64,000 nucleotides of DNA from a virus (IMGVR_UViG_2862481585_000002:1-64000); one strand, 5' to 3'. Counted from the first letter of the stretch, positions 4,422 to 44,048 are shown. A program made the numbers and translations. Notes: generated by a model not told the origin, from the letters alone.

Positions 4422-4697
4422 ATGAGTGACTACTTCGCGGAGCGGACTTCCGTGTTCGACCGGACCGTCCGTCACGGGGCGGATGCATGGCACCGGTTGG
4501 ACCGTGAGGAACTGGCTGCGCGTCGGGAGCGGAGTGGTAGGCGCGGGGCGGAGACTCGCCGGCGAAACTCGCACAGCGGTCCTGTGGTCACTGGGGTGAA
4601 GGTCTGGCCTGAGGTGATGAAGGCGGCCCTGAAGGCGGCCGGCGGGGATGCCAGTCGCCTGCGGATCGTCAGCGACACAGAGGTTTGGGTCGTCTGA
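4422..4697 (+). CDS. Hypothetical phage protein
   Basis: AGGAG RBS, ATG 4422. Confidence 0.65.
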   Translation: MSDYFAERTSVFDRTVRHGADAWHRLDREELAARRERSGRRGAETRRRNSHSGPVVTGVKVWPEVMKAALKAAGGDASRLRIVSDTEVWVV

Positions 4698-4717
4698 GCT
4701 GCGAATATTCTTGAGAT

Positions 4718-4738
4718 ACAACTTGTGGAACAAGTTGT
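4718..4738. promoter_or_regulatory. Inverted-repeat operator upstream of the recombinase
   Basis: ACAACTTGT-GGA-ACAAGTTGT; member of the CAA(C/G)TTG family. Confidence 0.7.
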
Positions 4739-4861
4739 TCGTCTAGTAGGCTCGGGGTGTCCCCGGAAGCGTTGGGCAACGCGGTCGGGACGCACTCCGG
4801 GCCTTCTTGCTTGGCGGGCACCAAGCAACCAGGCCCTTCCAACCACCTATGGAGGGCTTCG

Positions 4862-5857
4862 ATGGGCGCTGAGCTTGCTCTGATGGAGGGCGGGCAGATC
4901 CAGCCGTTCGCTGTGGCCGGCGCCTACCTGCTCACCAAGTCGGGCCGGACCCGTACCGAGTACCAGCGGGACCTACGCCACTACTTCACCTGGTGCGCCG
5001 AGTTCGGCCGCGACCCGTTCTTCCAGAAGCGCGCGCAGATGGACGCCTTCAAGAACTGGCTGTCCGACCACTACAGCGCCGGGGCGGTGAACCGTCACCT
5101 GTCTGCCGTGAGCGGCCTGTTCAAGTACGCCATGGCCGAGTTGGAGGACTTCATTGTCCGCAACCCGGTCGCCCTCGTCGACCGGAAGCCGACCTCCTCC
5201 ATCTCCCAGGCCACCGGCCTCACCTTCGTGGAGTGCGACCTACTTCTCCTCGGTGCCCAGGCATACAGCCTGCGGTGCTCCGCAGTCGTCCACATCCTGC
5301 TGCTGACCGGCATGCGCGTCAGCGAGCTGGTAAACGCCAACATCGAGGACCTGGGTGAAGAGCGCGGTCACAAGGTGCTGCGCGTCACCCGCAAGGGTGG
5401 ACGCCAGCAGACCATCGTGATCCCGCCGACCGCATGGGCCGCCCTGGAGGCGTACCTCGACGGCCGCACGAGCGGGCCGCTGATCATTACCTCCACCGGT
5501 CGCCGCATTACTCGGCAGGGCATCTGGGACATGGTCAAGCGCCTTTGCCGGCGTGCCGGTGTCCGGATGATTCGTACGCACGACCTGCGCCACACCTGCG
5601 CGACGCTCGCGCTTGAGAGCGGGATGCCGCTGGAGGCCGTGCAGGACCTGCTCGGTCACGCGGACCCGCGGACGACCCGACGCTACGACCGCGCACGCAA
5701 CAACCTCGACGCCTCCCCGAGCTACGCCATCGACGAGAAGCTCCGTGCCGTCGCTGCCCGCCGTCAGGCCGAGGCCGCGCTGGACGAGGCCGTTGAGGTC
5801 CTGGTCGACGAGGCCCTCCGCGAAGTGCTTGCCACCGCGGAACTCGCCGCCGCCTGA
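4862..5857 (+). CDS. Tyrosine recombinase/integrase (XerC/D-like)
   Basis: TGMRVSEL, KGG, HDLRH, LLGHAD and TTRRY catalytic motifs; GGAGG RBS before ATG 4862. Confidence 0.93.
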   Translation: MGAELALMEGGQIQPFAVAGAYLLTKSGRTRTEYQRDLRHYFTWCAEFGRDPFFQKRAQMDAFKNWLSDHYSAGAVNRHLSAVSGLFKYAMAELEDFIVRNPVALVDRKPTSSISQATGLTFVECDLLLLGAQAYSLRCSAVVHILLLTGMRVSELVNANIEDLGEERGHKVLRVTRKGGRQQTIVIPPTAWAALEAYLDGRTSGPLIITSTGRRITRQGIWDMVKRLCRRAGVRMIRTHDLRHTCATLALESGMPLEAVQDLLGHADPRTTRRYDRARNNLDASPSYAIDEKLRAVAARRQAEAALDEAVEVLVDEALREVLATAELAAA

Positions 5858-22835: not shown

Positions 22836-24569
22836 ATGTGTCGGTTGTCCTTCGCCTTCTTTCCGCCGAATCAGCGCGCGGCCGGCTCGGACCTCACCAT
22901 CTCCATCAGTCCTCTGGGCCTGGTCGAGCTTAGCGACGAGGAATTCGAAGTTCATGGCCCGAGACTGAACCGGTACGCCACCAACTTCGCGTTTTTCCTC
23001 GGGCACCATTGGGCCTACAGGAGAGAAGCCGGCGAGCCGCAGATCACCCTGAACTATGTGGCCACCTTCTCGCGCTACATCACCAACTTCTGCTTCTCCA
23101 AGGGTGTGAAGTTCGCGGTCCCCAAGCGGTACGAACACATCGTGCCGGCCTTGCTGAAGAGGGTCTGGGAGGTCGACAACGACAAGCAGTCCCTGCTGAA
23201 CTCCATTGGCGAACAGGGTGGCGTCACGGGCGACTCCTTCGTCAAGATCGCCTACGAGCCGCAGTGGGTCGACACTGCCGGCGGGATCCATCCGGGCCGC
23301 GTCCGCGTCCTCCCGCTGAACTCCGCGCACTGCTTCCCTGAGTATCACCCGCACGACCGCGACCGGCTGATCCGGTTCAAGCTGAAGTACAAGTTCTGGA
23401 CCACGGGCGCCGACGGAGCTCGGACAGTGATGACCTACACCGAGGTCATCACGGACACCGAGATCGAGGAGTACCTGAACGACGAGTTGATCGACGCCAG
23501 GCCCAACCCCCTCGGCATGATCCCCGTCGCTCACATCCGGAACATATCCGTGTCCGGCTCGCCCTGGGGCCTGTCCGACATCGGCGACATCATCTCGATC
23601 AACCGCGAGCTGAACGAGAAGATGACCGACGTCTCGGACATCATCAACTACCACGCCAGCCCGACGACGATCATCCAGGGCGCCAAGGCGACCAATCTGG
23701 AACGCGGCCCCCGCAAAATCTGGGGCGGCCTGCCGGAAAAGGCCAAGGTCTACAACTTGGAGAACGGCGTCGACCTGAACGGTCCGATGGGTTACATCCA
23801 GACGCTGAAGCTCGCGATGCACGAAATCACGGGCGTCCCGGAAAGCGCCCTGGGGCAGATGCAGCCGATTTCCAACACGTCGGGAGTTGCCCTCTCCATT
23901 CAGTGGTATCCGCTGATCAACAAGAATGCCCTGAAGCAGCTCAACTACGGGGTCGGTATCAAGCGGATCAACGAGCTGGTGCTCCGCACCCTGTTCTGTC
24001 ACGAGCCCCAGACACTGCTGTACGACCCCTATACCGACGGCATCAAGACCGAAGACGCCCAGCCCGACATCATCGACCCGAACGACCCAGACGTCTACAA
24101 CGTCGACTGCGTATGGCCGAGTCCGCTCCCGGTTGACAACCTCGTCAAGCTCAACGAAATCCAGGCCAAGCTCGCAATCGGTCTGGAATCCAAGCGAAAC
24201 GCCCTCGTCGAACTCGGGGAGGAATTCCCCGACGAGCGCCTGGAAGAGATGTTCAGCGAGCAGCGCCGGGACGTTGTAGAGCAGGGAGCCCTGGAGCTTA
24301 TCAAGGCGACCATTTCCTCTGCTATTCTCCAGATGACTGGAATTGCTACTGAGGAAAGTGGTAAGCCAGCTCCGTCAAGCGGGGGAAACCCGGATCAGTC
24401 CGGATCGCCCGCTGGCAATGCTCAGACCGGAGTTCTTCCCGGAGCAACCGGGATCGACCTCGGTGTGGACACCAAATCGTTGATCAACCAATTCGTGACC
24501 ATGGCGTACGGCACCAAGCTGCCGCAGAGCCGAAATTCGGAGGATGCCAGTAACCAGGAGACGCGCTAA
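22836..24569 (+). CDS. Portal protein
   Basis: NPLGMIPVAHIRN, G.SDI.DII, SGVAL motifs of SPP1-like portals; position (start may be TTG 22845). Confidence 0.9.
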   Translation: MCRLSFAFFPPNQRAAGSDLTISISPLGLVELSDEEFEVHGPRLNRYATNFAFFLGHHWAYRREAGEPQITLNYVATFSRYITNFCFSKGVKFAVPKRYEHIVPALLKRVWEVDNDKQSLLNSIGEQGGVTGDSFVKIAYEPQWVDTAGGIHPGRVRVLPLNSAHCFPEYHPHDRDRLIRFKLKYKFWTTGADGARTVMTYTEVITDTEIEEYLNDELIDARPNPLGMIPVAHIRNISVSGSPWGLSDIGDIISINRELNEKMTDVSDIINYHASPTTIIQGAKATNLERGPRKIWGGLPEKAKVYNLENGVDLNGPMGYIQTLKLAMHEITGVPESALGQMQPISNTSGVALSIQWYPLINKNALKQLNYGVGIKRINELVLRTLFCHEPQTLLYDPYTDGIKTEDAQPDIIDPNDPDVYNVDCVWPSPLPVDNLVKLNEIQAKLAIGLESKRNALVELGEEFPDERLEEMFSEQRRDVVEQGALELIKATISSAILQMTGIATEESGKPAPSSGGNPDQSGSPAGNAQTGVLPGATGIDLGVDTKSLINQFVTMAYGTKLPQSRNSEDASNQETR

Positions 24570-25385: not shown

Positions 25386-26667
25386 ATGGCATCTGCCATC
25401 ACCGGTACGCCGAATCTGTCGGCGTCTCCGACGAACTACTCCGGCACGAACTCTGAACTCTCTCCGGCGATCCAGGAACTCTGGTCGAAGGAGATCCTGT
25501 TTCAGTCGATGCCGATTCTCCGGTCTCGGGCCGCCTAACCTAGCGATGGGTTAGTGAGAACCACGCTGTATCGGTGAACCCCTCCTCCTCGTAGCAATCA
25601 TTCGTAGCACGGGGAATACCGAGGGAACCCAACACCTGGGACTCCGTAGAGACTACACGCGAGGCACCTCCTACAGGTCCAGCTCTTAGGTGAGAAGTGA
25701 GCTGGAGCTGGAGGTGAAGATATAGTCCGATCTTGCGGGATGGAAAACCGTAAGAGTCAGGCAGAAATGACCTGGCCCCGCAGCCGGCGGGTAACAAGCG
25801 CGAATTGTCGAGCAGTTCGCAGTCAAGAAGACCGAACTCGGGGTCAGCCCCGGTCTCACCATCCACTTCATGCGCTACGACAACCTGGGCAACGCGTCCC
25901 AGCTCGTCGAAGGCGTCCGCATGGAGACGCACGCCCTCACCGCGTCCCAGTTCAGCATCACGGTCAGCGAGCACGGCTACGCCATCGCGGTGTCGGAGCT
26001 ACTGCTCAACTCCTCGTTCGACGACGTCCTCGCCTCGGGATCCCGACTCCTGGGCCGAAACATGGCGAAGTACCTCGACGAACAGGCGCGCGACACCCTG
26101 CTTCAGGCCAGCTCGGTCCTGTACGGCTACGACAAGTTCGCTACGACTGGCAACGCACCGACCCGCATCTCGCCGTACGACAAGGGTGCGCCGTCCGCGA
26201 ACCGTGCCGGCCTGACCGGCAACTACCGGTTCACCAGCGCGCTTGTGAAGGACATGGTCGAAACCCTCGCGACCCGAAACATCCCGAGGCTCGGCGATGT
26301 CTACGTGTGCTTCGTCCACCCGCACCAGTCCCGCTGGCTGCGTGAGGACCCGACCTGGATCGAGTCCAGCAAGTACGCGCAGCCGGGTGCCTTCAGCCTG
26401 GGTGAGATCGGTCGGATCGACGACGTGATCTTCATCGAGACCACGCAGGTCAAGAAGATCGGCAACGGTAACGGCACGACCCCGGCGGACGTCTACCAGA
26501 GCATCTGCATCGGTGACAACGCCTTCGGTCACGCCATCTCCCTGCCGGTCGAGCTGCGTGATGGCGGTGTCCAGGACTTCGGCCGTGAGCACCTCCTGGC
26601 CTGGTACTCGATCTTCGGCCTGGGTCTGATCACCGACGCCTCTGTCGTCATCGCGGAGACCAACTGA
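25386..26667 (+). CDS. Major capsid protein, spliced: exon 1 25386-25524, exon 2 25808-26667 (332 aa)
   Basis: Joined exons (139+860=999 nt) read ...QSMPILR-F-EQFAVKKTELG...; capsid-like YVCFVHPHQ..L, GEIG and DFGREH.LAWY motifs. Confidence 0.92.
25525..25807 (+). ncRNA. Group I self-splicing intron (283 nt, no homing endonuclease ORF)
   Basis: Exon ends in U, intron ends in G; P1 with U.G wobble; P2 with GCGA tetraloop; R element AGAGACTA (25648-55) and S element AAGATATAGTCC (25717-28) form P7; P8, P9 and P10 present. Confidence 0.93.
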
Positions 26668-26777
26668 GTCTTCGAGACTGTGAAGCTCGGGCTTCGCAGT
26701 CACCCCCCGCAGGCAGGTCTTCGCTCGGAGGCCTGCCTGCGGGTTCGCACCAAACTTCCCTTGAGTAGGAGAACCAC

Positions 26778-27199: not shown

Positions 27200-27532
27200 G
27201 TGAGTGACATCCAGTTCGGACAGCGATACGTCCTGATGGCTGAAGGCGGATACGGCGCTGGGGTCGGCTCCCTACCGCAGGGCGCCGTGGTGACACCGGT
27301 CGAAGAGGTCGAGCCCGGCACAGCCGGCGTCGGCTACTCGACCGAGAACGTGGTGATCAGTACCTATGCGGATGCGTTGACCTTCCCCGGCACGACCATC
27401 GAGCGCACCCTGGCCATCGCTCTGTCCGCCTTCGACGAGTCCTTCACGCTCGAATCCGACCTTCCGCCAGCACCGCCTCCGGAGAACCCGGACCCCGAGA
27501 TGGCCGACCCCACCCCGCCGGGTGGTGAGTGA
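27200..27532 (+). CDS. Hypothetical structural protein
   Basis: AGGAG RBS, GTG start. Confidence 0.7.
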   Translation: MSDIQFGQRYVLMAEGGYGAGVGSLPQGAVVTPVEEVEPGTAGVGYSTENVVISTYADALTFPGTTIERTLAIALSAFDESFTLESDLPPAPPPENPDPEMADPTPPGGE

Positions 27533-28152
27533 TGCCCGGATACCTCACCCGGTACGCCAGTAAGGCCCTTCTGACGCTGATGACCGGCGGTGGCGAGAAC
27601 GCTGCTTCGGGGACCGATCCGGTGGCTGACCGTCTGCTGAAGGCGCACCTGATCAGGCACATGGCCGAGCCGACCATCGGTGTCTGGGCACCCAAGGCAT
27701 ACCTGCTTTCGCTCCTGGACCAGGTCGACTCCCAAGGATCCGCGGCCGTGCGCGCCGAGATACAGGCCCGTCCAGCAGACCCGAGCGGCTCGCTGTATCT
27801 GGCGCTGTGCACTTCCAATCCCGGCAACATGGCTACGGGTTTGTCCAGCGAGTTGACCGCAGTTGGCTACCAGCGTCAGGCCGTTCAAATGTCGGCTCCG
27901 AAGAACGGGGCGGCCTTCGTCGTGGAGTCAGCAACACCTGCCCAGGCGTCCCTGTCCAGCAGCGTGGTCTTCGGTCCCTTCACCGACGCCACTGGATCCG
28001 GTGGTGCCGTGACGCACATGGCGCTGGTCACCGCAGCGACCGGCACAGACATTGCGGTCCTCGCGGTGTGGCCCCTGGACTCTCCGGTCACCGCAGCTCA
28101 GGGCGAGTCCTTGCTGGCGTCGGCCGGCACACTCACGATCAAGGTGGACTGA
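27529..28152 (+). CDS. Virion structural protein, paralog A
   Basis: LYLAL.TS.PG...GY.RQ...FGPFT; similar to the next gene. Confidence 0.75.
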   Translation: MMPGYLTRYASKALLTLMTGGGENAASGTDPVADRLLKAHLIRHMAEPTIGVWAPKAYLLSLLDQVDSQGSAAVRAEIQARPADPSGSLYLALCTSNPGNMATGLSSELTAVGYQRQAVQMSAPKNGAAFVVESATPAQASLSSSVVFGPFTDATGSGGAVTHMALVTAATGTDIAVLAVWPLDSPVTAAQGESLLASAGTLTIKVD

Positions 28153-42926: not shown

Positions 42927-44048
42927 ATGGCTGACACCTATCGAAGCTACGCGGAACTGGCCGCAGCAAAGACCCGCGGCGTCGACTACCTCATCTCCTC
43001 ACGCGCCGTGGCCGACGCAAGAGGCTCGCACATCGCCATACACGGCGGCGGCATAGAGCCCCCCACCACGCAACTGGCGGACTACTGCGCAGCGACGAGC
43101 GGGTCCTCCTACTACTCGTTCCAAGGCGTGATGAGCAGCGGAAACAGCGCACTGCACATCACCGCAACCCGGTTCGATGAACCGACCGTCTTCCAGATTC
43201 AGCGGGGAGTCGAGTGGACGGTCTCCTGGCACGGGGCCAGCGGCAGCGATCAGCTCACCTACATTGGCGGGCTGGACACTGAGCTGGGGGAGGAAATCCG
43301 GAACCGACTGACTGCGGCTGGATTTCTCGTAGCGCCATCAGTTCCCACCGAGATTGATGGCGACGACCCCCTCAACATCACCAACCGGAACAGGACCGGC
43401 CGAGGCGTCCAACTGGAGCTAAGTAGGGGGCTGCGCGAGTCGTTCTATGCCGGCGGCGACCTGACGCTGGCCTCCATAGCCATCGCAGAAAACCGAACCG
43501 ACGCCTTCTACACGTACGCGACAGCGGTCATCAACGCTGTAGCAGCTACGTGGCCGGAGTCGCGACCGCCGACGCCAACAAGCATCCAGCCCGTGGCCGG
43601 CCCGGAAACCGCCGCCAGCACAGCCGGCTATCCGGGGACGGGAAGCGTACAGATGCGCATGCCGTTCCAACTCGACGCCATGGGCAGGGTGGCCGTCCTC
43701 ACCGACAGCGACCACATGATGGTGCAGCGAGCGCGCGCTGTCGTGGCCACCGTGCCCGGCGAGTACGTCGGTGAGCCAGCCTTCGGCTCAGACATCTCCT
43801 CCGCACTGTTCCGGCCAAGCGACCCCATCGCCCCGATGATCATCACCGATGCTGTGCGGACGGCCATGACACGTTGGGAGCCCGACACCGTCGTCACCGC
43901 TATCACTCCCGTCGTCCACGACGACCAGGAAGGCATCGTGGACGTCGAGGTGGACGTCGCTCAGGCCAACACGCCCGCAGTGGAAGCCGACCACATCGAG
44001 ACCGTGAGCGTCCTTCCCGGCGGTCGGGTGGTCGGCGGCTCCCTCTAA
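42927..44048 (+). CDS. Poly-gamma-glutamate hydrolase-family domain fused to a gp25/GPW baseplate wedge domain
   Basis: N-terminal HGGGIEP.T, LHITATRFDEP, SWHG, NI.N, GVQLELS; C-terminal MPF.L, T.PGE....P.FGS, RWEP. Confidence 0.85.
   Translation: MADTYRSYAELAAAKTRGVDYLISSRAVADARGSHIAIHGGGIEPPTTQLADYCAATSGSSYYSFQGVMSSGNSALHITATRFDEPTVFQIQRGVEWTVSWHGASGSDQLTYIGGLDTELGEEIRNRLTAAGFLVAPSVPTEIDGDDPLNITNRNRTGRGVQLELSRGLRESFYAGGDLTLASIAIAENRTDAFYTYATAVINAVAATWPESRPPTPTSIQPVAGPETAASTAGYPGTGSVQMRMPFQLDAMGRVAVLTDSDHMMVQRARAVVATVPGEYVGEPAFGSDISSALFRPSDPIAPMIITDAVRTAMTRWEPDTVVTAITPVVHDDQEGIVDVEVDVAQANTPAVEADHIETVSVLPGGRVVGGSL

Follow-up and report, generated by a model that had tools for sequence, protein, structure and literature searches.

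A stretch of viral DNA of 64,000 nucleotides (nt; IMGVR_UViG_2862481585_000002:1-64000), referred to here as the window, contains a major capsid gene that is interrupted by a 283-nt insert at positions 25525-25807. The insert is very probably a functional group I intron without an open reading frame (ORF) of its own, and the gene that it splits is of the N4-gp56 / Phage_capsid_4 type and is the sole major capsid gene of an integrated phage of about 90 kb. An earlier inspection of the DNA (the sequence-only reading) had proposed a compact, ORF-less group I intron at this place. The proposal gained support from a match to the Rfam group I intron model RF00028, from capsid homologues that are continuous across the insertion point, from covariation in a set of 60 related introns and from kinship with introns proven to splice.

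The interrupted capsid gene

Translation from the ATG at 25386 yielded MASAITG...SMPILR and then continued into the insert as far as the TAA at 25536-25538, an ORF of 50 residues. Downstream in the capsid frame, the sole long ORF starting with ATG was 25870-26667 (265 aa). Exon 1 ends in CGG T at 25524, the last base of the insert is G, and exon 2 starts at 25808 with UCGAGCAG, read as TC GAG CAG TTC and onward. When 25386-25524 was joined by script to 25808-26667, a frame of 999 nt was obtained that encodes 332 aa followed by one stop, and the joined product reads SMPILRFEQFAVKK, ...SMPILRFEQFAVKKTELGVS across the joint. The coordinates, the 265-aa ORF, the restored 332-aa protein and the TAA at 25536 given by the sequence-only reading all agreed with the sequence. 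Exon 2 matched the major head protein family phrog_1357 (E 6.8e-53, profile positions 53-344 of 356) as well as Pfam Phage_capsid_4; the phrog_1357 match begins only at profile position 53, and the N-terminus missing from it is exon 1.

A protein search with the capsid returned 5359 relatives at E <= 0.001, most of which carry the name N4-gp56 family major capsid protein, and 17 of these were retrieved for comparison of their N-termini. Eight of the 17 (326-346 aa) were full-length and unbroken, reading ...KEILFQSMPILR-F/Y-EQFAVKK within the pattern ...ILF..MP.LR-F/Y-EQF.VKK. The joined 332-aa product shared 244-261 of 332 residues with eight intron-less homologues. Five others had their N-terminus at or inside sequence that is intron here (P0002, which is the window's own record, P0003, P0040, P0058 and P0102), three started at MPILRF (P0004, P0014 and P0017) and one at MRYDN. 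The MPILRF starts would fit an intron just upstream, at the EIL|FQ site.

The distance from the end of exon 1 to the start of exon 2 was then measured at 100 external capsid loci (20 genomes and 80 viral contigs). Exactly one codon separated R and E in 92 of them, which are intron-less and read ...PILR-F/Y-EQFAVKK. An insert of 282-297 nt was present at the identical base in six loci (L002, L003, L004 and L015, which are Streptomyces genomes, and L022 and L023), and two loci (L025 and L064) were interrupted at neighbouring sites. A lack of continuity of homologous capsids across ILR-FEQF had been named beforehand as a refuting outcome; continuity was found in both the proteins and the loci compared. 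Same-site copies of the intron were carried by the four Streptomyces genomes and by seven closely related viral contigs. Among close relatives, identity over the intron was 265-268 of 283-287 positions, compared to 505-532 of 600 over the first 600 nt of exon 2, and two double changes were found in helix P2 among the near-identical same-site copies.

Fold of the intron and covariation

The Rfam scan at the gathering threshold listed no family for the region. With an E-value threshold, RF00028 matched 25510-25754 at model positions 1-253 with 38.3 bits (E = 2.7e-8 on 551 nt; 3.1e-6 on the 64-kb window with both strands and 4227 families), and the whole-window scan showed no other Rfam family at E <= 1 in the intron region. 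The sequence-only reading had suggested this comparison, and the match ran end to end. P1 to P9 follow in the consensus order, and the AGACUA...AAGAUAUAGUC core aligns to the RF00028 consensus. The helices named beforehand (P1, P10, P2 with its GCGA tetraloop, P7, P8 and P9) and the terminal G were all present (Table 1). The predicted fold has a P3-P8 core with a P3/P7 pseudoknot, the U.G wobble at the 5' splice site, the omega G and the J8/7-P7 core. The first P7 pair, which we take to be the guanosine-binding pair of the site, was G-C in all 55 family rows with letters at that position. Folding of the single sequence recovered P2, P6a, P8, P8a and P9 (z = -2.73).

Table 1. Coordinates of the capsid gene, its intron and the portal gene in the window (positions counted from the first letter); the last row names contigs outside the window.
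Feature	Position	Strand	Evidence and remarks
Portal gene, upstream (head module)	22836..24569	+	phrog_64 portal protein, E 4.9e-37
Exon 1, major capsid gene	25386..25524	+	46 codons plus first base of codon 47, U-terminated; residues 1-46 correspond to the N-termini of homologues without the intron
P1	25521..25533	+	exon CGGU 25521-24 with guide GCCG 25530-33; U25524.G25530 wobble at the 5' splice site
Predicted group I intron, 283 nt, without own ORF	25525..25807	+	RF00028, 38.3 bits; covariance model R1, 353.8 bits; covariation
P10 guide CUCGG	25525..25529	+	complements the first five bases of exon 2, UCGAG, 25808-25812
P2	25535..25554 (25535-42/25547-54)	+	8 bp, GCGA tetraloop; both-side changes in 8/8 pairs, 99.1% of cells paired
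In-frame TAA	25536..25538	+	12 nt inside the intron, on the P2 5' strand; unspliced RNA would give 50 residues
P3 5' strand	25561..25566	+	pairs with 25659-25664; third pair A.A; compensatory changes in 4/6 pairs, 90.8% of cells paired
P4 and P5	25571..25622	+	P4 25571-76/25617-22; P5 25579-82/25611-14; L5 of 28 nt
P6 and P6a	25623..25645	+	P6 25623-24/25644-45; P6a 25628-31/25637-40
P7 5' strand GACUA	25651..25655	+	pairs with UAGUC 25723-25727; pseudoknot with P3; 98.9% paired, compensatory changes in 2/5 pairs
P3 3' strand	25659..25664	+	covariation count
P8 and P8a	25665..25716	+	P8 25665-71/25710-16; P8a 25679-85/25699-705; compensatory changes in 7/7 pairs each
J8/7 and P7 3' strand, AAGAUAUAGUC	25717..25727	+	identical to the Rfam consensus in every letter
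P9, P9.1 and P9.2	25732..25791	+	P9 25732-38/25748-54; P9.1 25756-61/25771-76; P9.2 25777-81/25787-91
Omega G, intron terminal G	25807	+	with U25524, restores the R-F-E joint as in homologues
Exon 2, major capsid gene	25808..26667	+	remaining two bases of codon 47, then 285 codons and a stop; phrog_1357, Phage_capsid_4
18 contigs with introns in capsid genes of other than N4-gp56 type			L104, L106-L108, L110, L111, L117, L119, L120, L122, L126, L128, L129, L131, L134, L135, L138, L139

An exact-motif scan of viral contigs gave 43 matches on 38 contigs, and a covariance model (R1) was built from nine introns at three sites. R1 matched 60 introns in 39 sources, with one match in the window and one in the whole 89.9-kb record. 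Standard pairs filled 96.6% of 3549 cells in the 12 helices from P2 to P9.2, compared to 35.9-40.3% when the partners were slid by one to three columns, and changes on both sides were seen in 54 of 66 pairs, compared to 18-25 when slid. None of 500 shuffles matched the alignment on any of five covariation measures. R1 mis-pairs P3/P7 (11 pairs), and pairs were counted with the correct P3/P7 on the R1 alignment, so that these two helices were not fitted to the structure; P3 and P7 were nevertheless paired with compensatory changes at the levels given in Table 1. In the 60-intron alignment, P4 was 100% paired with compensatory changes in five of six pairs, P5 was 99.5% paired, and compensatory changes were found in five of seven pairs in P9, six of six in P9.1 and five of five in P9.2.

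The guide varies according to where the intron is inserted: the window has CGGU/GCCG with P10 CUCGG/UCGAG and the EIL|FQ site has UCCU/GGGA, while the intron of L064, at the FAV|KK site, has the guide GCGGU/GCCGC and a 6-bp P10 (UUCUUG/CAAGAA). An in-frame stop begins 2-31 nt inside the intron in 35 of 36 relatives in the N4-gp56-type capsid family. Splice sites placed automatically are unreliable, and taken as approximate, for L109/L137 (where the true 5' site lies outside the search range), L133 and the first introns of L125 and L103/L115. The script that placed the splice sites of relatives required a terminal G, and the Gs at those ends are not independent evidence.

Related introns, host genes and spread

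The 283 nt were compared by blastn with 50,697 phage records, and 30 records were matched, all from Cluster J mycobacteriophages, with 69.5-69.9% identity over 61-66% of the query; the phage collection gave no match when searched with the region by megablast. The matches in 28 of the 30 records coincide with the intron that BAKA and Optimus have in the minor tail gene, and the other two represent the LittleE capsid gene. R1 matched the BAKA intron with 151.9 bits (E 3e-53) and the LittleE intron with 127.4 bits, both over model positions 1-305, the full model. The records of BAKA and LittleE annotate putative group I introns. According to the available text of PMC3706429, reverse transcription PCR (RT-PCR) showed that in infected cells both introns are removed from late mRNA, and the LittleE joint was covered by N-terminal protein sequencing. 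On these matches, the window intron belongs to the same family as the minor-tail introns of BAKA and Optimus and the capsid intron of LittleE.

The 265-nt intron of BAKA and Optimus (available text of PMC3706429; blastn 69.5% over 66% of the query) resembles the window intron in its lack of an ORF, its similar size, its position within a late gene for a virion protein in a phage of actinobacteria, the U at the exon end and the G at the intron end. It differs in its host gene (tail) and host genus (Mycobacterium), and splicing is shown in BAKA and predicted from sequence in the window; in the BAKA intron, moreover, P2 lies farther from the 5' splice site and the 3' tail is shorter. The intron of LittleE gp13 (available text of PMC3706429 and PMC11855218) shares with the window intron the major capsid gene and a stop soon past the 5' splice site, and its 5' two-thirds are homologous to the window intron (blastn 69.9% over 61%). 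The LittleE intron is about 820 bp long and contains an antisense endonuclease ORF, whereas the window intron has none.

The introns of Twort, crAss-like and Jug phages are, by description, like that of the window in that they are small, belong to group I, often lack an ORF and interrupt essential genes of late or core function, but their hosts are Staphylococcus or gut Bacteroidota, and the window gene holds a single intron. Three introns have reportedly been found in Twort orf142. In crAss-like phages, genes for major capsid proteins have introns, one of them being in five fragments (available text of PMC7886860), and Jug phages have about 18 small group I introns per genome (available text of PMC12363816). 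The sequence-only reading had treated an intron in a capsid gene as unusual, phage group I introns being mostly in genes of DNA metabolism, and this view is out of date, since capsid-gene group I introns are in print for LittleE, for Tuc2009 as cited in PMC3706429, and for the crAss-like phages, as far as the available text of these papers goes. No paper on this intron family in Streptomyces phages was found in a literature search whose coverage ended short of supplementary tables, where more introns of capsid genes may be recorded.

Of the 60 family members, 36 were in capsid genes of the N4-gp56 type, at about eleven sites (near residues 33, 37, 46, 51, 70, 98, 137, 232, 239, 252 and 308 of homologue P0007). 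Up to five introns were found per gene: five in L113 (740-3160, oriented), five in L125 (3193-5447, oriented) and four in L121 (4435-6440). Five introns of these multi-intron genes formed a separate deep clade that scored above the Rfam cut-off. The other 24 introns were on 18 contigs, and on all 18 a flanking ORF matched a capsid family, namely Phage_capsid PF05065 (HK97-type) on 15, the major head protein phrog_752 on two and Phage_cap_E on one. By position and flanking sequence, with the intron's own flank searched for some only, 23 of the 24 were assigned to these capsid genes. In total, 59 of the 60 introns were in major capsid genes of four capsid families, in a set that was gathered by way of an exact core motif and in which four members are identical duplicates; the capsid bias may reflect this search route. 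The sole member outside a recognisable capsid gene was the second intron of L104 (11374-11649), whose flanking ORF fragments had no Pfam or PHROG match; its flanks may belong to a tail tube gene. At L133:6429-6882, about 450 nt separate the end of capsid exon 1 from the intron match and may hold another element. The phages of the relatives have Mycobacterium as host and, by the source names of proteins whose N-termini start inside the intron, Streptomyces, Streptosporangium and Nonomuraea.

The ORFs that overlap the window intron were the exon 1 read-through, an out-of-frame ORF on the plus strand that runs into exon 2 and two antisense ORFs, all outside the domain search. The sequence-only reading had stated that any mobility would need an endonuclease acting in trans. 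This fits the 89.9-kb provirus, where a search for HNH, HNH_3 and GIY-YIG domains and for a protein related to the antisense ORF of L107, but without the Pfam LAGLIDADG models, gave no match. The L107 ORF itself (4530-5075, minus strand) encodes 181 aa and, in a capsid gene of the HK97 type, separates the ribozyme core from exon 2, an arrangement as in LittleE; its match to LAGLIDADG_3 was weak (E 5e-4) and did not reach the cut-off.

In a tree of the 60 introns, the window intron fell into a clade of nine same-site introns with a Shimodaira-Hasegawa-like approximate likelihood ratio test (SH-aLRT) support of 99, and this clade includes one intron of L125. Labels for the insertion site changed 15 times on the tree, compared to 33.2 times when shuffled, and none of 200 shuffles was as low. 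The window and L125 introns were identical at 249 of 283 positions, compared to 111 of 156 in the first 156 nt of exon 2, and the L125 capsid exons are much more diverged. The kinship of the introns and the pattern of their sites fit a site-specific horizontal spread. Invasion of intron-less alleles would require reverse splicing or else a nuclease acting in trans, of the kind encoded by some relatives. At four of the insertion sites a terminal CGGU faces the guide GCCG; this would be compatible with reverse splicing to new places under the direction of the guide, in addition to homing helped by relatives that carry an endonuclease. Tentatively, and with rather less than even confidence, we propose that the window intron is one lineage of a large, largely undescribed and mostly ORF-less group I intron family that occurs almost only in major capsid genes of actinobacterial phages, extends over four sequence-unrelated capsid families with about eleven sites in one of them, and moves horizontally from phage to divergent phage at the same codon without an endonuclease of its own.

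Upstream of the capsid gene, the order is the portal gene (phrog_64) and an ORF of 262 aa without a family match, and a head-protein gene (phrog_240) follows downstream at 27529-28152. The integrated phage, about 90 kb in size, is probably a Streptomyces phage. An inverted repeat of 12 bp, rich in G+C (CCCGCAGGCAGG ... CCTGCCTGCGGG), at 26706-26744, about 40 nt past the capsid stop and without a following T run, may form a transcript-end hairpin. At 43890-44013 on the minus strand, a weak match to the Rfam atpB RNA (29 bits compared to a cut-off of 37.4, E 0.02) is probably due to chance.

Proposed splicing pathway, alternative readings and significance

On the reading of the insert as a functional group I intron, the capsid gene would be transcribed as a single RNA. 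Ribosomes on exon 1 would halt at the TAA 12 nt inside the intron and leave the ribozyme core free to fold; in work on the T4 td intron, an early stop is said to keep ribosomes out of the intron core. The guide GCCG and the exon end CGGU would form P1 with its U.G wobble, and, as in other members of the group, free guanosine bound at P7 would attack after U25524. CUCGG and the start of exon 2 would then form P10, the 3'-OH of exon 1 would attack after G25807, and the spliced mRNA would be translated into the 332-aa capsid protein. The unspliced RNA would give just a 50-residue peptide or, at best, an N-terminally truncated protein, and virion production would therefore depend on splicing.

Several points weigh against a working intron. 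The P1 of the window intron has just 4 bp, and the third pair of P3 is an A.A mismatch. The RF00028 score of 38.3 bits is under the curated cut-off of 50 bits, and a default scan misses the intron. The covariation alignment was fitted to R1 and favours the modelled helices other than P3/P7. The element is in a provirus that is possibly defective, although its estimated completeness is 98%. For the Rfam score, the introns proven by RT-PCR provided a control: they scored lower still (28.6 bits for BAKA and 30.7 bits for LittleE), which makes the missed cut-off a limit of RF00028 and not evidence against the intron. The gathering cut-off is a database threshold rather than a biological feature, and it is too strict for this intron family. 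A non-standard third P3 pair occurred in 25 of 55 family rows, and the Rfam consensus has an unpaired position on each P3 strand, which points to a common family trait rather than damage.

Group I introns that depend on proteins exist, and the window intron might splice in the cell only with the help of a host or phage RNA chaperone or maturase. We consider this unlikely. The short P1 and the long unpaired loops L5, L9 and L9.1 leave room for such a helper, but every core helix is in place, as are three peripheral hairpins, and all of them covary, a maturase-like ORF is absent in or beside the intron, and relatives in phages of several host genera argue against a host-specific factor.

It is very unlikely that the insert is a decayed group I intron that no longer splices, in the dead capsid gene of a defective prophage. 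The short P1, the A.A mismatch, the score below the Rfam cut-off and the provirus location would all suit such a relic. However, the two exons are undamaged and keep the register of the homologues, and every core helix is intact; the A.A mismatch recurs in many members of the family whose genes are otherwise undamaged. Copies at the same site in the Streptomyces genomes and viral contigs, with compensatory changes in P2, also speak against decay, as do an intron that is more conserved than the adjoining coding sequence and the high completeness estimate of the provirus.

The sequence-only reading had further suggested that splicing could gate virion assembly by GTP, Mg2+ or temperature; a regulatory gate of this kind would time or throttle capsid output. 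Capsid output can by logic not exceed the spliced mRNA, and the concentration of the family in capsid genes could hint at a link to late expression. Nevertheless, such a gate is hardly probable: 92 of the 100 loci manage without the intron, the introns are patchily present and cluster according to insertion site and not host gene, a pattern typical of selfish mobile elements, and the sequence is without any pointer to a sensor. The authors of the Cluster J study, in the available text of PMC3706429, presume extremely efficient splicing.

Other kinds of interruption can be dismissed almost entirely: a group II intron by the lack of any group II family at E <= 1 in the window and by a length of 283 nt without an ORF, an intein by the TAA 12 nt inside the insert and a length that is not a multiple of three, an insertion sequence by a size too small for a typical one and the lack of an ORF, and a programmed frameshift or miniature inverted-repeat transposable element, like the others, by ends that obey the U|...G| rule with matching guide sequences and by the lack of other Rfam families at E <= 1.

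The group I intron described here is real and mis-annotated rather than new, and it is kin of introns proven to splice. Because the intron scores below the Rfam cut-off, public capsid calls are truncated at the N-terminus, with lengths of 265-308 aa and starts in the intron or exon 2 (25804-26667 in the window; P0002, P0003, P0005, P0040, P0058 and P0102). A family-specific model would correct the capsid annotations of the provirus and its relatives. The finding opens no new mechanism, and the idea of a regulatory gate is speculation. The window intron brings a Streptomyces-type temperate phage into the host range of the Cluster J intron family and, taken with its relatives, shows that capsid genes harbour this family far more often than one would judge from the two published cases.

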